From positions 4,217 to 68,216 of the forward strand of contig JBGUEQ010000010.1 of the NCBI GenBank assembly GCA_041821265.1: a stretch of 64,000 nucleotides of DNA, written 5' to 3'. Each line of letters starts with the position of its first letter. Position 1 is the stretch's first letter. A program made the translations under genes and the position numbers. Origin of the DNA: Lachnotalea sp. Its GTDB lineage: Bacteria; Bacillota; Clostridia; Lachnospirales; Lachnospiraceae. The notes beneath the pieces are model-generated. The model had not been told where the DNA came from. It ran no database searches and worked only from the letters and a program-made list of their open reading frames with translations. Shown here one piece after another: positions 24,016 through 61,620 of the stretch.

Positions 24016-24936
24016 ATGAAAATAGCAATTTTGGGAGCAGGGGCTATGGGAAGCTTATACGCAAGCTATCTCATTGCTGCACATGATGTCAGTTTAATAG
24101 ATAGTTATAAACCACAAGTAGATAAAATAAATATTGATGGGTTAATAAAAATAAATCCTGATAAATCAGAAGAAACCTTTATGGCAAAAGCAGTATTAAG
24201 TGGTACGAATATTGGTATTCAGGATTTAGTTATTGTTTTTGTAAAAGGTTTACATACATATCAAGCAATGAAGGAAAATCTAACACTCATCGGTCCCAAT
24301 ACGATTGTAATGTCACTTCAAAACGGTGCAGGAAATAATAAAGATATTCGAAATTTCGTATCAAAGCGTAAAATAATCGTTGGAACCAGCAGTCATAACA
24401 GTGTTTCTATGGAACTTGGTAAATTCTATCACTCCGGATGTGGTCCAACTAATATTGGACCTGACTATCCTTGCAACGAATCAATAGCGGATGTAAAAAT
24501 AGTAGCACATACTTTAACAGATTGTGGATTGGATGTTAATGTAATTGAAAATATTCAAAAAGTCTTATGGCAAAAGCTCCTTGTTAACTGTGGAATCAAT
24601 GCACTTAGTACAGTAATGCAATGTAAGCTAGGTGAAGTTTATACCAACCCATATCTATGGAGCCTTTGTAAAAAAATTATATATGAATGCACATTGGTAG
24701 CAGAAGCAGATGGAACCTATTTTGATCGAATGGATGCAATTGAAATCGTTAAAGATGTTTGCCAAAATAATGCATCTGGGTATGCCAGTATGTATCAGGA
24801 TCGTATTAATCTACGCTTAACAGAAATCGATCGAATAAATGGTGTTGTTGCCAATCTCGGCAAGGAATATGGCATTTCTACTCCTAATAATACGATACTC
24901 GTAGAACAAATACATGCTATTGAACAAATGTATTAA
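24016..24936 (+). CDS. panE: 2-dehydropantoate 2-reductase (ApbA/PanE family)
   Basis: N-terminal Rossmann motif ILGAGAMGSLYA. 306 aa with the ApbA N- and C-domain layout. RBS AGGAGG. Confidence 0.8.
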   Translation: MKIAILGAGAMGSLYASYLIAAHDVSLIDSYKPQVDKINIDGLIKINPDKSEETFMAKAVLSGTNIGIQDLVIVFVKGLHTYQAMKENLTLIGPNTIVMSLQNGAGNNKDIRNFVSKRKIIVGTSSHNSVSMELGKFYHSGCGPTNIGPDYPCNESIADVKIVAHTLTDCGLDVNVIENIQKVLWQKLLVNCGINALSTVMQCKLGEVYTNPYLWSLCKKIIYECTLVAEADGTYFDRMDAIEIVKDVCQNNASGYASMYQDRINLRLTEIDRINGVVANLGKEYGISTPNNTILVEQIHAIEQMY

Positions 24937-25342
24937 AATATTACTAACTCAACTTGTCATTGAAAAGACCTGTGATGAGTTGGTTTTAATTGATAGAAAT
25001 GAAGATATGGCATGGGCTGAAGTCACAGCTTCAAACCATTTATTATGTTATACCGAATGGAAGATGAGAGTTTCACAAGGGGCAACGAAAGATTGCAGCG
25101 ATGCGGATATCGTCGTTCTCTCTGTTGCAGGAAGAAATGAAGAAGGTATGACAGTACTTGATATGACTGAAAGTGCCGGAGCAATCGTTAAGAATATTGT
25201 TCCTGAAATCATGAAAAGTGGTTTTGATGGCATATTTGTTGTAATAACCAATCCGGTTGATGTGATGACTTATTTAGTGCAAAAACTGTCAGGATTACCT
25301 GCAAATAGAGTGATAGGGAAAAATGTAACTTATTTTAGGTAA
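24937..25342 (+). pseudogene. Remnant of an L-lactate/malate dehydrogenase-family gene (central part of the NAD-binding domain only)
   Basis: ..DELVLIDRNEDMAWAEV..CSDADIVVLSVAG..FDGIFVVITNPVDVMTYLVQKLSGLPANRVIG resembles the LDH core. The GxGxxG start and the whole catalytic C-domain are missing. It ends 7 codons after RVIG and overlaps the gntR stop. Confidence 0.65.
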
Positions 25343-26344: not shown

Positions 26345-27307
26345 CTACAAATTGTTGATCTCTTTTGCATAATGACAAGCAATAAAATGATTCTGGGTTA
26401 CTTCGATGAGTGGTGGCTCAGAACTAAAACATAAATTTTTTGCATAATTACATCGCGGCGCAAATCTGCATGTTGCTGGTGGTTCAATTGGTGAAGTAAT
26501 CTCCCCCATCAATTGAATACGTTCTTTGTTGGCACCGATATGAGGCTTAGGAATTGCCGAAAGCAGTGCTTTAGTATATGGATGGAACGGTTTATTGAAT
26601 AATTCTTTAGCTTCGCATTTTTCCATAATTTTCCCTAGATACATTACTGCAATATCATGAGAGATGTGCCTAACCACAGACAGGTCATGAGTAATAAAAA
26701 TATATGACAGATTACGCTCTTTTTGCAAATCCTGAATTAAATTCAGAATCTGAGCCTGAATCGAAACATCCAGAGCGGAAACCGGCTCGTCGCATACCAT
26801 CAACTTTGGATTTAACACCAATGCACGACCTATTCCGACACGCTGCCGACGCCCGCCATCTAACTCATGCGGGTAAGCGTTACCAAGTCGTGATGCTAAG
26901 CCTACCGTATCCATTATTTCATTAACTCGCTTCTGATATTCCTGTTTTGTCTGACAAACCTTATGGATAATCAGTGGCTCTCCAATGATTTTCTCCACGG
27001 TCATGCGAGGATTAATCGAGGAAAATGGATCCTGAAAAATCATCTGCATATCCTTACGTAACTCATGAAATGTTGCCTTAGAAGGCTTGGAAATATCCCT
27101 TCCATCAAAAATAATCTTACCACTGGTGGCTTCGAGAAGATTCAGGATTACACGACCCAAAGTGGATTTACCGCATCCAGATTCGCCAACAATACCCAAA
27201 GTCTTCCCCTTTTCCAAGGTAAAACTCACTCCATCCACCGCATGAAGCATACCGGACTTCGTCGGGAAATGTTTTTTTAGATCATTTACTTCTAGTAATA
27301 TACTCAT
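26345..27307 (-). CDS. Peptide/opine/nickel-type ABC transporter ATP-binding protein (OppF/DppF-like)
   Basis: Walker A GESGCGKST, a Walker B region, and a C-terminal Cys-rich oligopeptide-type extension (CRFAPRCNYAKNLC). Confidence 0.9.
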   Translation of the reverse strand: MSILLEVNDLKKHFPTKSGMLHAVDGVSFTLEKGKTLGIVGESGCGKSTLGRVILNLLEATSGKIIFDGRDISKPSKATFHELRKDMQMIFQDPFSSINPRMTVEKIIGEPLIIHKVCQTKQEYQKRVNEIMDTVGLASRLGNAYPHELDGGRRQRVGIGRALVLNPKLMVCDEPVSALDVSIQAQILNLIQDLQKERNLSYIFITHDLSVVRHISHDIAVMYLGKIMEKCEAKELFNKPFHPYTKALLSAIPKPHIGANKERIQLMGEITSPIEPPATCRFAPRCNYAKNLCFSSEPPLIEVTQNHFIACHYAKEINNL

Positions 27308-27321
27308 CTCTTTTCACTCCT

Positions 27322-28335
27322 TTATTGACCTGAGCATAAGATGCACTTTACCTTATGCCCTTTGGTAACTTCCACTACTTTAATATTAGTAGAATCGCAT
27401 TCTTTTGAGTAATAATTACAACGAGGATGAAATTTACAACCATTCGGTAAATCTGTTGGAGAAGGTCCCATACCTCTAATCGTCTCAAGTCGTTCTAAAT
27501 CTTTTTGTAAATCAGGGATGCAACTGAACAATCCCTTTGTATATGGATGCAGTGGATTATTAAAAATATCCTCAAGAGTTCCGTATTCCACAATTTCTCC
27601 TGCATACATAATAGCGACTTTATCACACACTTCTGCAACTACACCTAAATCATGCGTAATCATTATCATTGCGGTGTTAAATTCCTTCTTGAGGTCATTC
27701 ATCAAATTTAATATCTGTGCCTGAACTGTTACGTCAAGTGCAGTTGTAGACTCATCCGCAATTAGAAGTTTAGGATTACACGCTAACGACATAGCAATCA
27801 TCACCCTTTGCTTCATACCCCCTGAAAATTGATGTGGATATTCATCATAACGATCACCTTTGATTCCGACAATTTCTAGCATCTTTTTTGATTTAAGGAT
27901 AGCATTCATTTTAGATGTTTTTTCATGTAAACGCACTACTTCCATTATTTGATCACCAATGCTGATCAATGGATTCAATGAAGTCATTGGATCTTGGAAA
28001 ATCATCGTGATATCTTGTCCTCGGATTTTTCGCATTTGACGCTCTGACTTGTCCAAGAGGTTTTCTCCTTCATAATAAATTTCCCCTTTAACAATCTTAC
28101 CTGGTGGATCAGATATTAACCTAATAATACTGAGCGCTGTGGTAGTTTTTCCTGCGCCAGTTTCACCAACCAATCCTAATGTCTCTCCATGACAAATATC
28201 AAAACTTACACCATTAACCGCACGAACCACTTCATTATCGACGATGTATTTAACTTCTAGATCTCTGACTTCTAATAACTTTTGCTTTCTTTCCGAAATT
28301 ATATTATTCTTTAATGGTTCATTTTTCTTAATCAT
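27322..28335 (-). CDS. Peptide/opine/nickel-type ABC transporter ATP-binding protein (OppD/DppD-like)
   Basis: Walker A GETGAGKTT, signature FSGGMKQRV, and the C-terminal extension CKFHPRCNYYSKEC. Confidence 0.9.
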   Translation of the reverse strand: MIKKNEPLKNNIISERKQKLLEVRDLEVKYIVDNEVVRAVNGVSFDICHGETLGLVGETGAGKTTTALSIIRLISDPPGKIVKGEIYYEGENLLDKSERQMRKIRGQDITMIFQDPMTSLNPLISIGDQIMEVVRLHEKTSKMNAILKSKKMLEIVGIKGDRYDEYPHQFSGGMKQRVMIAMSLACNPKLLIADESTTALDVTVQAQILNLMNDLKKEFNTAMIMITHDLGVVAEVCDKVAIMYAGEIVEYGTLEDIFNNPLHPYTKGLFSCIPDLQKDLERLETIRGMGPSPTDLPNGCKFHPRCNYYSKECDSTNIKVVEVTKGHKVKCILCSGQ

Positions 28336-28345
28336 TTTTCATCTC

Positions 28346-29206
28346 CTACTTCAACCTTGGATCAATTGCATCACGCAAGCCATCCCCCAGCATATTAAGT
28401 GCATAAGTAGTACATATAATAGCAAGACCAGGAAAAATTGAAATATACCAATAATCTCTCAAATATGTTCTACCTTCTGAAATCATAAGACCCCATTCTG
28501 GAGTCGGTGCCTTTATCCCCAAACCAATGAAGCTCAACGACGCTGCGTATAAGATTACATTTCCAACCCCCAATGTGTATTGAACGATAAGCGGAGAAAT
28601 AGCATTCGGAAGGATATGCCGCACCAAAATACGTAAATCACTTGCTCCTAGCGAACGAGCGGCCTCTATAAACTCCTGTTCCTTTATTGTTAAAACCTGT
28701 GCTCGTGCTACTCTAGCGAAAGCCGGCACCGATGTTATAATCAGAGCAATCATCATATTTTTCATATTATTTCCTAGAGCAACAATTATGCTTATCGCCA
28801 GCATAAAATTGGGAATTCCCATGACAACATCAATAGTTCTCATTATCAAATTATCAACCTTATTAAAATATGCTGCAAAAGATCCAAGCATAATACCAAC
28901 TAGTGATGCAACTGAAATGAATCCTATACCAATGATTAGCGTATATCGACTGCCATAAAGGATACGACTAAAAATATCACGTCCAAAATTATCTGTCCCA
29001 AAAAGATGCTGAGTATTAGGAAATACAAATGTATCTTCATAGTTTTGAGCAGCATAATCATACGGGATAAGAAGTGGTGCAAGAATAGCAATAATAATAA
29101 CCAATAACATTGTGATCAAACCTATCACAGCCATACGATTACGTTTTAATCGTTTCCATATTTCGTATATAAGTGTTTTTTTTCTTTGTTTCTTACTCTT
29201 AAACAT
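28346..29206 (-). CDS. ABC transporter permease (OppC/DppC-like)
   Basis: Polytopic with an EAA-type loop (EAARSLGASDLRILVRHILPN). Start placed at ATG 29206 (MFKSKK..), overlapping the upstream permease stop. Confidence 0.88.
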   Translation of the reverse strand: MFKSKKQRKKTLIYEIWKRLKRNRMAVIGLITMLLVIIIAILAPLLIPYDYAAQNYEDTFVFPNTQHLFGTDNFGRDIFSRILYGSRYTLIIGIGFISVASLVGIMLGSFAAYFNKVDNLIMRTIDVVMGIPNFMLAISIIVALGNNMKNMMIALIITSVPAFARVARAQVLTIKEQEFIEAARSLGASDLRILVRHILPNAISPLIVQYTLGVGNVILYAASLSFIGLGIKAPTPEWGLMISEGRTYLRDYWYISIFPGLAIICTTYALNMLGDGLRDAIDPRLK

Positions 29207-30194
29207 TCTTGGACACCTTCTTTCCACCTATATCTAAAACATAAGACTTAGATCTCTTTTTTCCCTTAGAGATGTGCATAGTTTTGATACGCGGATCAAT
29301 GAAGAAATAAATGAGATCTATAACAAGATTAATAATAACACAATTTAAACCAATCCACAGCACAGCCCCCTGTATCGCCGGGTAATCCTTAAAACCAACG
29401 CTGTCAATAATGAATTTACCCAATCCAGGTAACGCAAAGACTGTTTCAACCAGTACTGAACCTGCAAGAAAAGTGCAGATTTGAATGCCGATGACGGTGA
29501 CTATCGGTACCATAGCATTACGAAATGCATGTCGAAACACAATAACAATCTCCGATTGACCTTTAGCCTTAGCTGTACGAATATAATCCTGTCGAATCAC
29601 CTCCAGCATACTAGAACGTGTCATTCGCATGATTGAAGCACTAGCCTGTAAACCCATCGTAAAGAGTGGCAATATCCAATGTAAAAAACTATAACTTCCA
29701 GTGGCAGGAAGCCATTTTAGTTTAACCGAAAAGAACAACACTAACAACATAGCTATCCAAAATGATGGTGCCGATGCACCAAATAGTGAAAAAGTTGTAG
29801 ATAATTTATCCAAGAACGAATACTGACGCACTGCGGAAATAATACCTGATAGAACACCAATAATAATTCCCAGAAAAACACTACCAAAGGTAAGTTTCAG
29901 TGTAGTAGGGTATCTATCCATAATTTCATCAATTACAGGGCGTTTACTGCGAAAAGAATCTCCCAAATCACCATGTAATAGTCCAGTAATATAATGACCC
30001 AATTGTATAAAATATGGATCATCCAATCCTAATTCATTATTTAATTGCGAAATTGCTTCAGGCGTGGCATTGTCACCTAACATTGAAATCGCCGGATTAC
30101 CTGGAGTGATATACATTAAACTAAATACGATTACAATAATTCCTAGTAATACCAGAATCATATATATTATTCTACTCAAAATATATTTTAACAT
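29199..30194 (-). CDS. ABC transporter permease (OppB/DppB-like)
   Basis: MLKYILSRIIYMILVLLG.. N-terminus and an EAA-type loop (RTAKAKGQSEIVIVFRHAFRNA). Confidence 0.88.
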   Translation of the reverse strand: MLKYILSRIIYMILVLLGIIVIVFSLMYITPGNPAISMLGDNATPEAISQLNNELGLDDPYFIQLGHYITGLLHGDLGDSFRSKRPVIDEIMDRYPTTLKLTFGSVFLGIIIGVLSGIISAVRQYSFLDKLSTTFSLFGASAPSFWIAMLLVLFFSVKLKWLPATGSYSFLHWILPLFTMGLQASASIMRMTRSSMLEVIRQDYIRTAKAKGQSEIVIVFRHAFRNAMVPIVTVIGIQICTFLAGSVLVETVFALPGLGKFIIDSVGFKDYPAIQGAVLWIGLNCVIINLVIDLIYFFIDPRIKTMHISKGKKRSKSYVLDIGGKKVSKNV

Positions 30195-30419
30195 TTGCTT
30201 ACTCCTTATATACTTAGAAATGCAGGTGTTTATAACTTACCATAGCTTACTAATGCACGAAACTATTTTAATCTGAAAATATAACCAATCACCGACTTTT
30301 CTAAAGCTTTTATTACATTCTAGGAGTATATTATTAATATCATGAAAACTTAAACTCCACAAATAATGAAAAAGCTCTATAAAAGTATGCTTGGGTCCTG
30401 TTAGCACTAGACAATTGAT

Positions 30420-31970
30420 TTATTCAAAATAAACAGATTGTAAATAATGGTTTTCATAAGTTGGCATCAAGTTAAATCCTTGAACGTCTTTTTTTATTGC
30501 AGCATTGATTTCTTTGTGCCATATCGGCAATGCTATTTTGTCTTTCATAATCATTACCTGTAACTCTTTGTATAATTCGAGACGCGCTTGCTCATCAATC
30601 GTTCCCAGTGCCTTTTGGCATTGACTCGTATATTCATCAGATTCCCAGTTAAAAATTTTATTTGTTGAGCTATCAGGCAACCAACGCATTAAAACACTTC
30701 CTGCTTCCCCGGTACTAGCAGTAAATCCAAATATAGATAACTCACTCTCACCTGCAAACAGACTGGAAATCCATGTATTCATCTCCATGAAATCAAGTTC
30801 AAGTGTGATACCAACTTCTGCTAACTGGGATTGAAACGATTGTGCAACATCCATGCGTTGCTGATTGGAATTTTCACAGGAAACATGCAAAGTCAAACCA
30901 TCTGTATACCCTGCCTCAGCAAGTAATTCCTTGGCTTTATTAACATCTCTCTTTGGAAAGTATGTACTTAGTTCTTCATTACGACCTTCAACACCAGGTG
31001 AGACAAACCCGTTTGCAATATTTCCATAATCACCATAAGCCACCTCTATTGTATTAGGTACATCAACTGCATACCAAATAGCTTCACGTACCAACGGATT
31101 ATCCAACGGCTCTTTGGCAATATTGAAACAAAGATAACTGGTATTATAGCCCATAGCGGTAACTAAGTTTATATTCGGATTATCTCTTACTCGATCCACG
31201 TCATTTGCATTAATATCATATACAATATCTGCTCCGCCAGATTCGGCTTCAATTGCACGGCTGGAACTGTCGGTAATAATCCGGAATTCTACGTTCTTTA
31301 TTTTCGGTTCATCTTTAATCCAATAGTTTTCATTAGCTGTCAATTCAACTCGGTCACCTGTATTATAACTCACAAATTTATAAGGACCTGTACCGATTGG
31401 AGCTATATTAAAATCACCATTTGATTCGTTATAAGCTTTTTCACTTATTATGCTGATCTTTGGGCTTTCCAGCATTGGCAACTGAAGTGCAGAAGGTTCT
31501 GTAGTTACTATCTGGAGCGTATAGTCGTCGATTACTTTGGAAGCAGTAAGATCTATAAAAGGAATCTGATTTTTACCTGTCATATTGTCATCAAATACTC
31601 TCTTAAATGAAAATAGTACATCGCTAGCTTTTAATTCCTCGCCGTTATGAAATAACACACCTTTTCTAATATGGAAAATAATCGTCTTATCATCTTGGTA
31701 CTCCCAGCTTTCAGCGAGGCATGGACTTAAGTTACCATCAGCATCACGTACCACTAACGTTTCGTAAATCTGACGGGTAACTTGATGATGCGCGAAGTCA
31801 TCAGTATCATTTGGATCCATCGATCCTGGGTCATTGTTAATAACTACTGTTAAAGTATCTTTTTTTTGCTCATTATTTTTTCCTTCAATATCATTTTTAT
31901 TACAACCGGAAATACTCAAAACAAAAACACCCATCATTAAAACAGCGCAAATCCGTAACATTTTTTTCAT
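30420..31970 (-). CDS. Family-5 (peptide/nickel/opine-type) ABC substrate-binding lipoprotein
   Basis: Lipobox LSISGC. About 515-aa SBP_bac_5-like architecture. Start set at ATG 31970 (MKKMLRI..) after AGAGG. Confidence 0.85.
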   Translation of the reverse strand: MKKMLRICAVLMMGVFVLSISGCNKNDIEGKNNEQKKDTLTVVINNDPGSMDPNDTDDFAHHQVTRQIYETLVVRDADGNLSPCLAESWEYQDDKTIIFHIRKGVLFHNGEELKASDVLFSFKRVFDDNMTGKNQIPFIDLTASKVIDDYTLQIVTTEPSALQLPMLESPKISIISEKAYNESNGDFNIAPIGTGPYKFVSYNTGDRVELTANENYWIKDEPKIKNVEFRIITDSSSRAIEAESGGADIVYDINANDVDRVRDNPNINLVTAMGYNTSYLCFNIAKEPLDNPLVREAIWYAVDVPNTIEVAYGDYGNIANGFVSPGVEGRNEELSTYFPKRDVNKAKELLAEAGYTDGLTLHVSCENSNQQRMDVAQSFQSQLAEVGITLELDFMEMNTWISSLFAGESELSIFGFTASTGEAGSVLMRWLPDSSTNKIFNWESDEYTSQCQKALGTIDEQARLELYKELQVMIMKDKIALPIWHKEINAAIKKDVQGFNLMPTYENHYLQSVYFE

Positions 31971-32131
31971 AATTACTACCTCTTCTTTCATTTTTTATTT
32001 TTTTAACTGTTAACATATTTAATATTGCTTAAATATTCTTCATCATTAGTTCAAAATACTTATTCCACCTGATGTGTTTAATTACATATTGCTTGTAATC
32101 TTGTTTAATTCTTAAAACTAACTTACTCAAC

Positions 32132-32587
32132 TCAGACTTCGATGATAGCTTCAATTTCAACAGGAGCGTCCATTGGTAGCTGATTTGTACCTATTGCAGT
32201 ACGGGCATGTCGGCCACTTTGTCCAAAAATATCGATTAATAGCTGAGAAGCTGCGTTGATGACTATGTGTTGCTGCTCAAATCCCACTTCACTACTGACA
32301 AATGCCTGTAACTTAACAATACTCTTCACCTTTGCCAAATCTCCCAAATAAAACTTTAATGCAGCGAGCATATTAATGATGCAAACACGAGCTGCTTCTT
32401 CTGCTTCCTCAAGCGACAAATCTTTCCCAACCTTACCAGTATATAGTAATTTCCCATCCTTAAATGGAATCTGACCTGATACATAAAGTGCATTTCCGAG
32501 CTGCCTTACTGGGATGAATAAGCTTCCTGTTTTAGACGTTTCTGGGAGGACAATTCCCATTTTTTCAATTTTCTTTTCAATATTCAC
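32132..32587 (-). CDS. RidA/YjgF-family (reactive enamine/imine deaminase family) protein, 151 aa
   Basis: YVSGQIP, ARTAIG and LPMDAPVEIEAI motifs typical of the family. Confidence 0.8.
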   Translation of the reverse strand: MNIEKKIEKMGIVLPETSKTGSLFIPVRQLGNALYVSGQIPFKDGKLLYTGKVGKDLSLEEAEEAARVCIINMLAALKFYLGDLAKVKSIVKLQAFVSSEVGFEQQHIVINAASQLLIDIFGQSGRHARTAIGTNQLPMDAPVEIEAIIEV

Positions 32588-32697
32588 ACTAATCTCCTTT
32601 TTTATATATTCATAATTTTAATTAATACCGTATAATCTGCCAGTAAACTCGCCTATTTCTCTAATTGCCACCACGCCTTGAAATACAGACTTGATTT

Positions 32698-33378
32698 TTA
32701 TTTAGTGTTCAACACTTCAATAATCTCTTCTACTCGTTCGTCGCTAATACTAAGTTTTTGAGTGGTGGCCACCCACAAAGAATCATAGTTTACCCTATCA
32801 ATAACAGATTTCAATTCTTTTACTTTTTCGTCAGAATCATTATAGCCTTTGAGAAGGAATATTCGTAGTTTTAACTTCCCCTTATACTGCTTACTGAAAG
32901 TCACAAGACTTTCTATTTGTTTCGCAGCAGTTAAGTCCATTTCTTCTAGCGGACGATGAATCTTTTTGAAATCCGCCTCATTTGTAAGGCCAATTGCCGC
33001 AACTACCTCTTCACACATACTCGCCAATCGCATATGCTCTCCAATCCCAACCAAATAGCTATTTGTAAGTATGCGAACTGGCAGACCATGATTGTGAATG
33101 CAATCGATAACTGCCCCCAAATTTGTGTTGGTTAAAACATCGCCTTGTCCATACACCTCAACCAATTCCGGATTTTCTTGGACAATTTTTTCACCGAGAT
33201 ACTTCAATGAATCCTCAACTGGACCAAAATCATGCCACTCGCCCATATACATAGTTTTTTTGTGATTGCACATTACGCAGTTAAAAATACAAGCTTTCTG
33301 CGGATTTATATCAACCCGTAGTATCTTTCCTTCATCCACTTTAATAAATTCATCCTGTTTGTAATTAAAATAATTCAT
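32698..33378 (-). CDS. Small radical SAM protein (226 aa), function unknown
   Basis: CxxxCxxC cluster motif CIFNCVMC near the N-terminus. No SPASM-type or other auxiliary Cys cluster seen. First gene of the operon. RBS AGGAGG. Confidence 0.75.
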   Translation of the reverse strand: MNYFNYKQDEFIKVDEGKILRVDINPQKACIFNCVMCNHKKTMYMGEWHDFGPVEDSLKYLGEKIVQENPELVEVYGQGDVLTNTNLGAVIDCIHNHGLPVRILTNSYLVGIGEHMRLASMCEEVVAAIGLTNEADFKKIHRPLEEMDLTAAKQIESLVTFSKQYKGKLKLRIFLLKGYNDSDEKVKELKSVIDRVNYDSLWVATTQKLSISDERVEEIIEVLNTK

Positions 33379-33435
33379 TTTTTCCTCCTGGTCTTGTGTA
33401 TTTAGTCATATCATTATCCTAACTTAAAATAAAAA

Positions 33436-33478
33436 AACAAAGGCATCCATTATATTTCTAATGAATAACGCCTTTGTT
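33436..33478 (-). terminator. Intrinsic-terminator-like hairpin in the 5' leader of the radical SAM operon (possible attenuator)
   Basis: Minus strand: AACAAAGGC..(inner CATTA/TAATG stem)..GCCTTTGTT followed by TTTTTTTATTTT (33435-33424). It lies about 40-55 nt upstream of the RBS/ATG at 33378. Confidence 0.55.
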
Positions 33479-33515
33479 ATTTTAAATTGGACCTATTAAT
33501 TTGTAATAATTAAGT

Positions 33516-33550
33516 GATTCAGATTTTGATTTGATAGAAAACTCTGAATC
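33516..33550 (-). other. 12-bp bulged hairpin in the same leader
   Basis: GATTCAGATTTT / AAAA(C)TCTGAATC with a 10-nt loop, between the repeat array and the leader terminator. Confidence 0.4.
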
Positions 33551-33577
33551 GTATCATAATTTACATCAACAAGTAGA

Positions 33578-33625
33578 TTGATATATTGATATATTGATAC
33601 GTTGATATGTTGATATGTTGATATA
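33578..33625. repeat. Tandem array of 6 x 8 bp: invariant TTGATA plus a variable dinucleotide
   Basis: Units are TTGATATA, TTGATATA, TTGATACG, TTGATATG, TTGATATG, TTGATATA. All variation falls in positions 7-8. Confidence 0.9.
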
Positions 33626-33645
33626 TCATTTATTTATTTTTTTTT

Positions 33646-33674
33646 ATAATATCATATTATAATTTGAATATCAA
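33646..33674 (-). promoter_or_regulatory. Possible sigma-A promoter of the radical SAM operon (TTGATA-17 nt-TATTAT)
   Basis: Minus strand: -35 at 33674-33669 and -10 at 33651-33646. This would put the repeat array in the transcribed leader. Confidence 0.35.
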
Positions 33675-33768
33675 GTCATAAACTCATTTTTTTATCCTTA
33701 TTGGTTACAGTTCGTTACTATTCACAGCCCTGATAAGTAATATAACGTTAGGACAAACGCAACAATTT

Positions 33769-33833
33769 AAATAGTAAATAGTAAATCTCTAGTTTTCATT
33801 AGTGTTTCAAACAATTTTGAGAGCTAGAGATTT
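33769..33833. other. 2.5 x AAATAGT tandem heptamer running into a 10-bp stem (AAATCTCTAG/CTAGAGATTT) with a 31-nt loop
   Basis: Read directly. Lies in the non-coding gap between two operons. The loop contains an inner TCAAA/TTTGA stem. Confidence 0.4.
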
Positions 33834-33916
33834 TTTGAAATATTTTAGCGGTCAACGACTAAATGCTATCGTTATTGCCCTTCACCTGAAATAAACTAAT
33901 TAACTTACACCCAAAA

Positions 33917-33947
33917 CAGAGACAGGAAATATGATTTCCTGTCTCTG
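33917..33947 (-). terminator. 14-bp perfect hairpin terminator for the upstream sugar-catabolism operon
   Basis: CAGAGACAGGAAAT-ATG-ATTTCCTGTCTCTG, followed on the minus strand by TTTTGGGTG. About 190 nt downstream of the dehydrogenase stop. Confidence 0.7.
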
Positions 33948-34140
33948 AAAAATATACTTTAACTCTACTCATCTTATCTTATTTATTCGAAAACGAGTTA
34001 TAAATAGTTTCGAACGAGTTCTTTGTATATTGTTAAAACTGATAAAATATCTACTTGATAAAACAAATACTTATAACTTAATAAGCCAGTTACTTGGAGC
34101 TTAATATAAGGTTCTTGGGACAATTCAAATGTTGACAATA

Positions 34141-35262
34141 TTATACTATCATTGCTATTTTGAGTCCATCCATTCGAATATTCGTTTCCATTGCCTCATT
34201 CAGTTCTTCTAATTTAAACTTATGTGTTATCAGCTTTTGAATCGGAAGTCCCCTCAGCTGAGCTTCTTTTAGGAATTCACAAGCCTGCATCCAGTCTTTT
34301 GATTGGTACGTCCATGAACCGGTAACCTTAATTTCTTTATTACAGATATCCAAATGTGGATTGTATGTAGCATCACCATTATTAACAAAGAAACCTAATT
34401 CACACAAAGAACCGCCCCTTCTTACGTATTGCCATAAAGTAGTTGCCGCTTTGGGTGAACCGGTACATTGAAATACCATTTCAGCTCCCAATCCTTCTGT
34501 TACTGCTTTCACTGCTGCAACCGCTTCGTCCTGTGTTTTAAAATCAGTAAAATTAATAATTTCACTTGCTCCCAGATCTTTAGCCATATTTAATCTTTTT
34601 ACGTCGCCGTCAACAGCAATAATATTTCTAACTCCCATCGTACGAACTAGGGTTAACAGTAATAAACCAATAGGCCCGCACCCCTGCACCAATACATAAG
34701 AATCATGTTTAAAGTTGAATATCTCTTTTGCTTTTTCAACTGCATGTACTATAACAGCAGATGGTTCAATTAATAACCTTAAATCAAGATCTTCCATATC
34801 GCTAACATTAAAAATAACACCACCAGCATTTATTTTAATATATTCACCAAACCAACCATTAAAAAAATGTTTTTCTCCAGGTAAGAGACCAAATATTTCT
34901 CCCTCCTCACAGAGATGTATCTTTTCCGGATGCTTTGTACACGTATTACATACACCGCAAGGTTTTAAACCGGTAACTATTTTATCTCCAATTTGAAGGG
35001 ATTTACCTGAATAATCACTTGATATGTTCTTACCAATTTTTACAATTGTCCCTGTGCCTTCATGTCCTAATTGTACAGGAATATAACCAAAAGGATCCCC
35101 TTTATATTCATGAACATCTGTACCACAGATTCCACACCCTTCCACCTTCACTAAGACTTCATCATCATTAATTTCCGGAATAGGTAACTCTTTTACTTCT
35201 AGTTTTTTTTCACTCATTAATATAGATATTTTTGCTGTTTTGGGAATTTCATAATTATTCAT
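34141..35262 (-). CDS. Zinc-dependent medium-chain dehydrogenase (sorbitol / polyol-phosphate dehydrogenase-like)
   Basis: CGICGTDVHEY, GHEGTGTIVKIG, a structural-Zn Cys cluster (CGVCNTCTKHPEKIHLC) and the Rossmann motif GCGPIG. Confidence 0.85.
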   Translation of the reverse strand: MNNYEIPKTAKISILMSEKKLEVKELPIPEINDDEVLVKVEGCGICGTDVHEYKGDPFGYIPVQLGHEGTGTIVKIGKNISSDYSGKSLQIGDKIVTGLKPCGVCNTCTKHPEKIHLCEEGEIFGLLPGEKHFFNGWFGEYIKINAGGVIFNVSDMEDLDLRLLIEPSAVIVHAVEKAKEIFNFKHDSYVLVQGCGPIGLLLLTLVRTMGVRNIIAVDGDVKRLNMAKDLGASEIINFTDFKTQDEAVAAVKAVTEGLGAEMVFQCTGSPKAATTLWQYVRRGGSLCELGFFVNNGDATYNPHLDICNKEIKVTGSWTYQSKDWMQACEFLKEAQLRGLPIQKLITHKFKLEELNEAMETNIRMDGLKIAMIV

Positions 35263-61566: not shown

Positions 61567-61620
61567 ATCTGCTTATAATAATATAATTACATTATCTGCT
61601 TATAATAATTTAATTACATA
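61567..61620. repeat. Tandem 27-bp direct repeat abutting the -35 of the AraC-family gene promoter
   Basis: ATCTGCTTATAATAATATAATTACATT / ATCTGCTTATAATAATTTAATTACATA (25 of 27 identical). Confidence 0.85.

Follow-up and report, generated by a model that had tools for sequence, protein, structure and literature searches.

A phased array of six TTGATA units as the probable, locally expanded operator of a GntR/HutC-family repressor in a radical SAM gene cluster

The six phased TTGATA units at 33578-33625 probably constitute a DNA operator for a GntR/HutC-family repressor which is encoded at 26054-25335 of the same gene cluster. Most likely, the regulation is of an ordinary kind; what is unusual is the local increase from two to six 8-bp units. 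As far as sequence comparisons reach, comparative genomics supports such a DNA-operator reading well. A preliminary description of this locus had preferred protein-dependent attenuation in RNA and had named phased regulator sites on DNA as the alternative. It is this alternative which appears to be backed by a conserved palindrome, by matrix hits and by a linked GntR gene. A literature search on the motif strings retrieved unrelated primers only, i.e., motif and regulon are without a description there, and the array appears to be an undescribed HutC-type operator together with its regulon. The tempting reading as a new RNA attenuator is replaced by a conventional, testable one. Throughout, "the window" denotes the whole stretch of 64,000 nucleotides which was analyzed.

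On the plus strand TTGATA starts at 33578, 33586, 33594, 33602, 33610 and 33618. These are six units in exact 8-nt phase, with the spacers TA, TA, CG, TG, TG and TA in this order. TRF reports the same array (33577-33626, period 8, 6.2 copies, score 72), and the phased repeat of the preliminary description is confirmed. Across the window TTGATA has 90 matches against 84 expected. The hexamer as such is not enriched; therefore, the signal is the phased cluster. In an independent Logan assembly, which may share the same source sample, the whole intergenic region is 100% identical. The repeats of this region are:

33578..33625, no strand assigned: 8-bp units TTGATA+NN (reframed GATAYRTT/C), six in tandem, interpreted as an expanded operator
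33549..33569 (33549-33572 as the segment paired in the fold), no strand assigned: two degenerate inverted units (CGTATCA..TACATCAA), from sequence reading and inverted-repeat pair I8

Together with array units the degenerate inverted units make up an imperfect inverted repeat, and in the RNA fold the two partners are paired. By self-BLAST, the intergenic region showed no repeated or mobile element. An iteron or replication-origin reading was rejected: replication genes are absent, and in chromosomal MAG contigs the motif goes with the promoters of a metabolic cluster. Two further repeats of the window may be mentioned. Inside the OppC-like coding region, at 28842-28857 (minus strand), two TTGATA stand at 8-nt spacing (ATTATCAA twice); this pair scores below the operator matrix threshold and is probably due to chance. 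The top-scoring tandem repeat of the window is located at 61567-61619 (27-nt unit, 2 copies, 96% matches, TRF score 99).

All substitutions in the array fall into the 2-nt spacers, which the preliminary description had taken as an argument for selection on the hexamer. The pattern is present, yet its statistical weight is low because the series TA to TG to CG plus unit duplication needs just two to three independent substitutions. The chance probability that these are spacer-only is about (2/8)^2 to (2/8)^3, i.e., 0.06 to 0.016. When the unit is reframed as GAYATRTY the supposed spacer becomes unit positions 5-6. Position 6 (R), where most of the array variation resides, is variable among orthologous sites as well (ACATGT versus ACATAT).

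The array sits in a 760-bp gap. The upstream sugar operon ends with a terminator at 33947-33917. The downstream operon and the regulator gene which follows it, as assigned by Pfam scans, are:

26345..33378, minus strand: downstream operon, read as the regulated one
33378-32698, minus strand: radical SAM
32587-32132, minus strand: RidA-like
31991-30420, minus strand: Opp-type substrate-binding protein
30194-28346, minus strand: two permeases
28335-26345, minus strand: two ATPases
26054-25335, minus strand: GntR/HutC-family regulator (winged HTH + UTRA; Pfam GntR and UTRA), separated from the ATPases by a 290-nt gap

The radical SAM protein has 226 aa with CxxxCxxC at residues 30-37. Its family (window and L002, L005, L008, L010, L015) lacks an NCBIfam assignment and, for the most part, precomputed Pfam hits. 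The genes often occur as tandem paralogues, beside SSF or Opp transporters, RidA, ThrE, a Pro_racemase-family enzyme and GntR. The cluster is uncharacterised, conserved in gut anaerobes, and probably amino-acid- or peptide-related. Next to the regulator gene, and convergent with it, is a 142-aa ORF at 24914-25342 (plus strand) which also overlaps the terminal part of a ketopantoate-reductase-like gene. Of lactate/malate dehydrogenase this ORF contains solely the N-terminal NAD-binding domain; it may be a gene fragment.

Close relatives were not found in the collections searched. An exact-protein lookup yielded one identical contig. Protein P0001 and the radical SAM protein of the window, which stems from a Lachnotalea sp. 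MAG, are 100% identical, and the closest further homologues share 52-65% protein identity. The orthologous loci stem from MAGs of Clostridiales, Dysosmobacter, Pyramidobacter, Synergistaceae and Eubacteriaceae, i.e., from several phyla. Their clusters comprise one or two radical SAM paralogues, RidA, ThrE, a transporter (SSF; an Opp-type binding protein in L016), often a Pro_racemase-family gene, and GntR/UTRA.

Promoter regions of these orthologous clusters contain a palindrome of 16-20 bp, TTGACATGT-YR-ACATRTCAA (TTGACATGT-YR-ACATGTCAA). It consists of two 8-bp units GAYATRTC, each of which is itself nearly palindromic. Because of these near-palindromic halves the family site can be read either as an inverted repeat or as two direct units. 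GACATGT-YR-ACATRTC is present in cluster promoter regions of L002-4, L005/6, L008/12, L010, L013, L015 and L017, with three sites in L008/L012 and two in L015. Weaker sites are located upstream of the gene in L014 and L016. Twelve orthologous sites have the consensus TTGACATGTCGACATGTCAA and the core GACATGTC or GATATATC. Examples are:

L002 600-619: motif site TTGACATGTTGACATATCAA
L005 2550-2569: motif site TCGACATGTCAACATGTCGA
L005 3065-3084: motif site TTGACATGTCAACATGTCAA

The motif is present in 8 distinct loci, where it is adjacent to or overlaps promoters that match at 10-11 of 12 positions. Relative to the downstream gene the motif is found in either orientation. The site at L005 3067-3082 lies between -35 and -10 of TTGACA-16-TAAAAT, supplies the -35, and is not transcribed. 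L005 2552-2567 and site a of L015 (3023-3038) contain the -35 of divergent promoters. In the case of L015 this promoter belongs to the GntR gene itself, which implies autoregulation. Just after the -10, as in the window, are the L002 site and site b of L015 (3087-3102); the layout of L002 (promoter 556-585, operator 602-617) is analogous to that of the window.

An operator matrix was built from the 12 orthologous sites with the window excluded and was applied in 20-bp registers. Within the 64-kb window it hits solely 33578-33629, in five overlapping registers which score 21.5, 16.8, 19.4, 25.0 and 25.9 bits. Shuffled windows have 0.15 hits per window at 16.8 bits or more. Further sites in the window, be it upstream of the GntR gene, at the ThrE genes or elsewhere, were not detected. 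The best register is:

33610..33629, no strand assigned: best canonical operator, the near-palindrome nearest to the promoter, TTGATATGTTGATATATCAT, 25.9 bits

This score falls inside the range of the training sites (20.3-31.9 bits). TTGATATGTTGATATATCAT has the architecture of the L002 site with a C changed to T, a variant which also occurs in L010 and L013. Of what is expected of a GntR/HutC-type operator, the following is at hand: a dyad-symmetric site of about 16-20 bp at 33610-33629, its conservation in promoter regions of orthologous target operons, and a co-localised gene for a putative cognate regulator with a conserved DNA-reading head.

The candidate reader is this regulator, an orthologue of which is encoded in almost all of the orthologous clusters. 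GntR/UTRA orthologues exist in nine loci (L005, L006, L008, L010, L011, L012, L014, L015 and L016), and GntR/UTRA is the one regulator which is consistently linked with the motif. The window GntR is 39-52% identical to the cluster-linked GntRs. Across seven loci hardly any change is seen in the winged HTH (FGCSRITVTxALREL...RVQGKGT), which fits a common DNA specificity. The protein belongs to the HutC subfamily. It remains below every NCBIfam equivalog cut-off and, thus, is uncharacterised. The closest solved structure is that of NagR/YvoA, a dimer which binds palindromic operators.

How might such an operator work? The relevant features upstream of the radical SAM gene are:

33674-33646, minus strand: predicted sigma-70-type promoter TTGATA-17-TATTAT with TG-extended -10, match at 10 of 12 positions
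33516-33550, minus strand: bulged leader hairpin, lineage-specific (inverted-repeat pair I1, fold)
~33424-33488, minus strand: terminator-like hairpin with A-tract and U-tract in the leader (pairs I2, I3; fold)

All three had been pointed out in the preliminary description and are borne out by the present analysis as sequence features. The predicted promoter puts the transcription start at about 33639 and the array at about +14 to +61. There, just downstream of the operon promoter, repressor dimers are predicted to sit and to prevent initiation, promoter escape or early elongation. In 16-bp registers there would be room for a maximum of three adjacent dimers, the best site being the promoter-proximal pair, since the non-overlapping registers of units 1-2, 3-4 and 5-6 score 21.5, 19.4 and 25.9 bits. 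A metabolite effector at the UTRA domain would release the dimers. The unit presumably was multiplied in tandem to six copies by replication slippage in the lineage of the window. Occupancy of four units is uncertain because 4 of the 6 lack the terminal C which is needed for a true palindrome. Further, a centre-to-centre spacing of 16 bp places adjacent dimers on opposite helix faces, and simultaneous binding may be barred. Two further points run counter to the operator model. The GntR gene of the window has no upstream site, and a strong terminator-like hairpin between array and gene is left unaccounted for.

Two units prevail in orthologs, three are the maximum (L010, L017), and the window has six plus the two degenerate inverted ones. 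Possibly, and here we are tentative, only the pair at 33610-33629 is functional and the other four units are a neutral, microsatellite-like expansion of half-sites by slippage. This would refine the operator explanation and does not exclude it. Two, at most three, units suffice in the orthologs, and the substitution pattern of the array is explained by two to three events. Moreover, tandem TTGAYANN 8-mers with all possible NN are frequent in metagenomic and viral DNA that is unrelated. A pattern scan for four or more TTGAYANN units in metagenome and viral collections returned at least 188 loci with at least 204 arrays. Among the matches listed these are generic 8-mer repeats, unlinked to radical SAM or GntR homologues, and no relative is among them. 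On the other hand, the array contains three unit types and therefore is not a very recent perfect slippage product; 7 of the 51 background arrays with at least six units among the matches listed are as heterogeneous. Neutrality is further at odds with the variation being placed at operator-tolerated positions and with the distal pairs still scoring 17-25 bits. As a side observation, TTGATAYG is repeated four times on three unrelated metagenomic contigs (L038 1972-2003, L105 1828-1859, L123 6309-6340) with inverted copies (TTATCAAC, GTATCAAC) within about 15-20 nt. Direct units followed by inverted ones are reminiscent of the window, but neither radical SAM nor GntR homologues are encoded nearby.

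More doubtful is that the six units are a selected functional expansion, either for at least three contiguous GntR/HutC dimers or as a slippage-tunable operator. If the former were true, dimers at 16-bp spacing would represent a MetJ-like tandem-box mode for a winged-HTH regulator. If the latter were true, unit number would set repression strength in the lineage of the window. The expanded operator might act together with the lineage-specific leader terminator.

It is improbable that another DNA-binding protein, e.g., a small MetJ-like ribbon-helix-helix repressor, reads the 8-bp units. Such a reader is suggested by analogy, as contiguous, nearly palindromic 8-bp units resemble MetJ boxes. It is also suggested by the core. 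The consensus of the HutC subfamily is reportedly GT-N-TA-N-AC, and neither GACATGTC nor GATATATC matches it. This is weak counter-evidence to the GntR assignment; members of the subfamily are known to deviate from the consensus. Against a ribbon-helix-helix reader stands the consistent linkage of GntR/UTRA with the motif across loci. The ORFs of the intergenic region comprise 22-46 aa only, and no small regulator gene stands out beside the array. A non-exhaustive search of the neighbours examined revealed no ribbon-helix-helix gene. Finally, the LysR and AraC regulators of the window are not conserved in orthologous clusters.

RNA attenuation, as envisaged in the preliminary description, has become very unlikely. 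In that scheme an oligomeric RNA-binding protein of the TRAP/HutP type would recognise 6 x UAUCAA on the emerging leader RNA and govern the terminator. The predicted promoter would indeed transcribe the array. The leader of roughly 260 nt folds better than shuffled sequences (z = -5.9) and contains the terminator-like hairpin. By itself this hairpin has -22 kcal/mol; 7 U come after it, and some 40 nt separate its end from the GGAGG ribosome-binding site. Since it has an A-tract on one flank and a U-tract on the other, it is of the bidirectional type. The orthologs tell against attenuation. Their motif is palindromic, stands in both orientations and is often in untranscribed DNA, between -35 and -10 or upstream of the -35; a sense-strand array in a transcribed leader is plausible in the window and is not shared by relatives. 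Neither the terminator-like hairpin nor the bulged hairpin at 33516-33550 has a counterpart in orthologous leaders. A comparative alignment of leaders, which the preliminary description had proposed as a check, was carried out: RNAalifold predicted zero pairs for the leaders of seven loci, i.e., no shared structure.

The leader of the window does not offer a switch either. Full, truncated and constrained folds were searched for an antiterminator, and none was found. When folds are truncated before the 3' arm of the terminator, the 5' arm is unpaired without an upstream partner; hence an RNA-binding protein would have no antiterminator to act upon. In these truncated folds the array pairs only locally, with 33572-33549, and it is about 100 nt away from the terminator. 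The lone antiterminator candidate is a weak, AU-rich complementarity of 15 nt (33558-33572 versus 33474-33488, pair I5) which reaches only about 5 nt into the base of the terminator stem. An overlap of the array with an antiterminator that competes with the terminator was not found. Among annotated neighbours no gene for an oligomeric RNA-binding regulator was seen. That riboswitch or T-box features had not been recognised agrees with Rfam. An E-value scan of 33000-34500 with E up to 10 gave nothing near a gathering score (the subthreshold noise includes SpF39, E = 0.13, essentially the terminator of the upstream operon), and a scan of seven orthologous loci at gathering threshold gave no match. 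Leader terminator and hairpin are lineage-specific and are left unexplained by the operator model. A weak promoter-like TTGTTT-16-GATAAT, a sequence reading below the promoter-scan threshold, overlaps the U-tract; transcripts which start at the promoter beside the array may or may not pass the leader terminator.

Just as little probability attaches to TTGATA units acting as -35 elements on the plus strand for a short divergent transcript that ends at a hairpin near 33840: a TTGATA-16-TATCAT match at 33602-33629 (plus strand), a 16-bp hairpin followed by UUUUUUG at about 33783-33840 (plus strand) and the TTGACA of the operator which doubles as -35 in orthologs speak for it, whereas a plus-strand ORF in 33630-33800 and an Rfam match are absent and the six copies are left unexplained. 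Such a transcript, with a predicted start at about 33636, could be about 200 nt long. This promoter would be compatible with operator function and is not an alternative to it.

With the array as an operator, a new operator motif and a regulon are defined, and in gut anaerobes an uncharacterised but conserved cluster appears, from the sequence comparisons, to be under the control of a GntR/HutC regulator. The cluster is made up of one or more radical SAM enzymes, RidA, ThrE, a Pro_racemase-family enzyme and a transporter. The motif is a handle on the regulon and, eventually, on the substrate of an unannotated radical SAM family. With its increase from two to six units the array amounts to a natural experiment, on a small scale, in the evolution of operator copy number.

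Several known systems invite comparison. TRAP (GAG/UAG x 11) and HutP (UAG x 6) share with the window short motifs at fixed spacing and a terminator-like hairpin in the leader. The window differs in that array and antiterminator do not overlap, that the orthologous motif is present in untranscribed DNA and in both orientations, and that a gene for an RNA-binding attenuator is not seen among the annotated neighbours. Simple-sequence contingency loci likewise have a tandem repeat of a short unit in a regulatory region, and slippage could alter its copy number. In the window, by contrast, the units are imperfect and the array is downstream of the -10; a change in copy number would consequently alter the number of operator sites and not promoter spacing.

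In its form the array resembles MetJ operators, which consist of two to five tandem 8-bp metboxes (AGACGTCT), and the heptad arrays of the omega repressor. In all of these contiguous, short, nearly palindromic units are aligned such that several dimers could bind next to each other, and copy number differs between operators of the MetJ and omega type. The contiguous tandem 8-bp boxes of the window are like MetJ boxes in form only. The sequence of the array is unrelated to MetJ or omega sites, and those arrays are bound by ribbon-helix-helix proteins whereas no such gene is linked to the array of the window.

In kind, the array resembles the operators of GntR/HutC regulators, e.g., the dre sites of B. 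subtilis NagR/YvoA and the operators of Streptomyces DasR, TreR and PhnF. These, too, are palindromes of 16-20 bp, located in or beside the promoter of a catabolic or transport operon, and the regulator with winged HTH and UTRA domain is encoded in the cluster. The window departs from them in its core GACATGTC, which is not of the GT-N-TA-N-AC type, and in presenting the half-site as six contiguous direct units instead of one palindrome.
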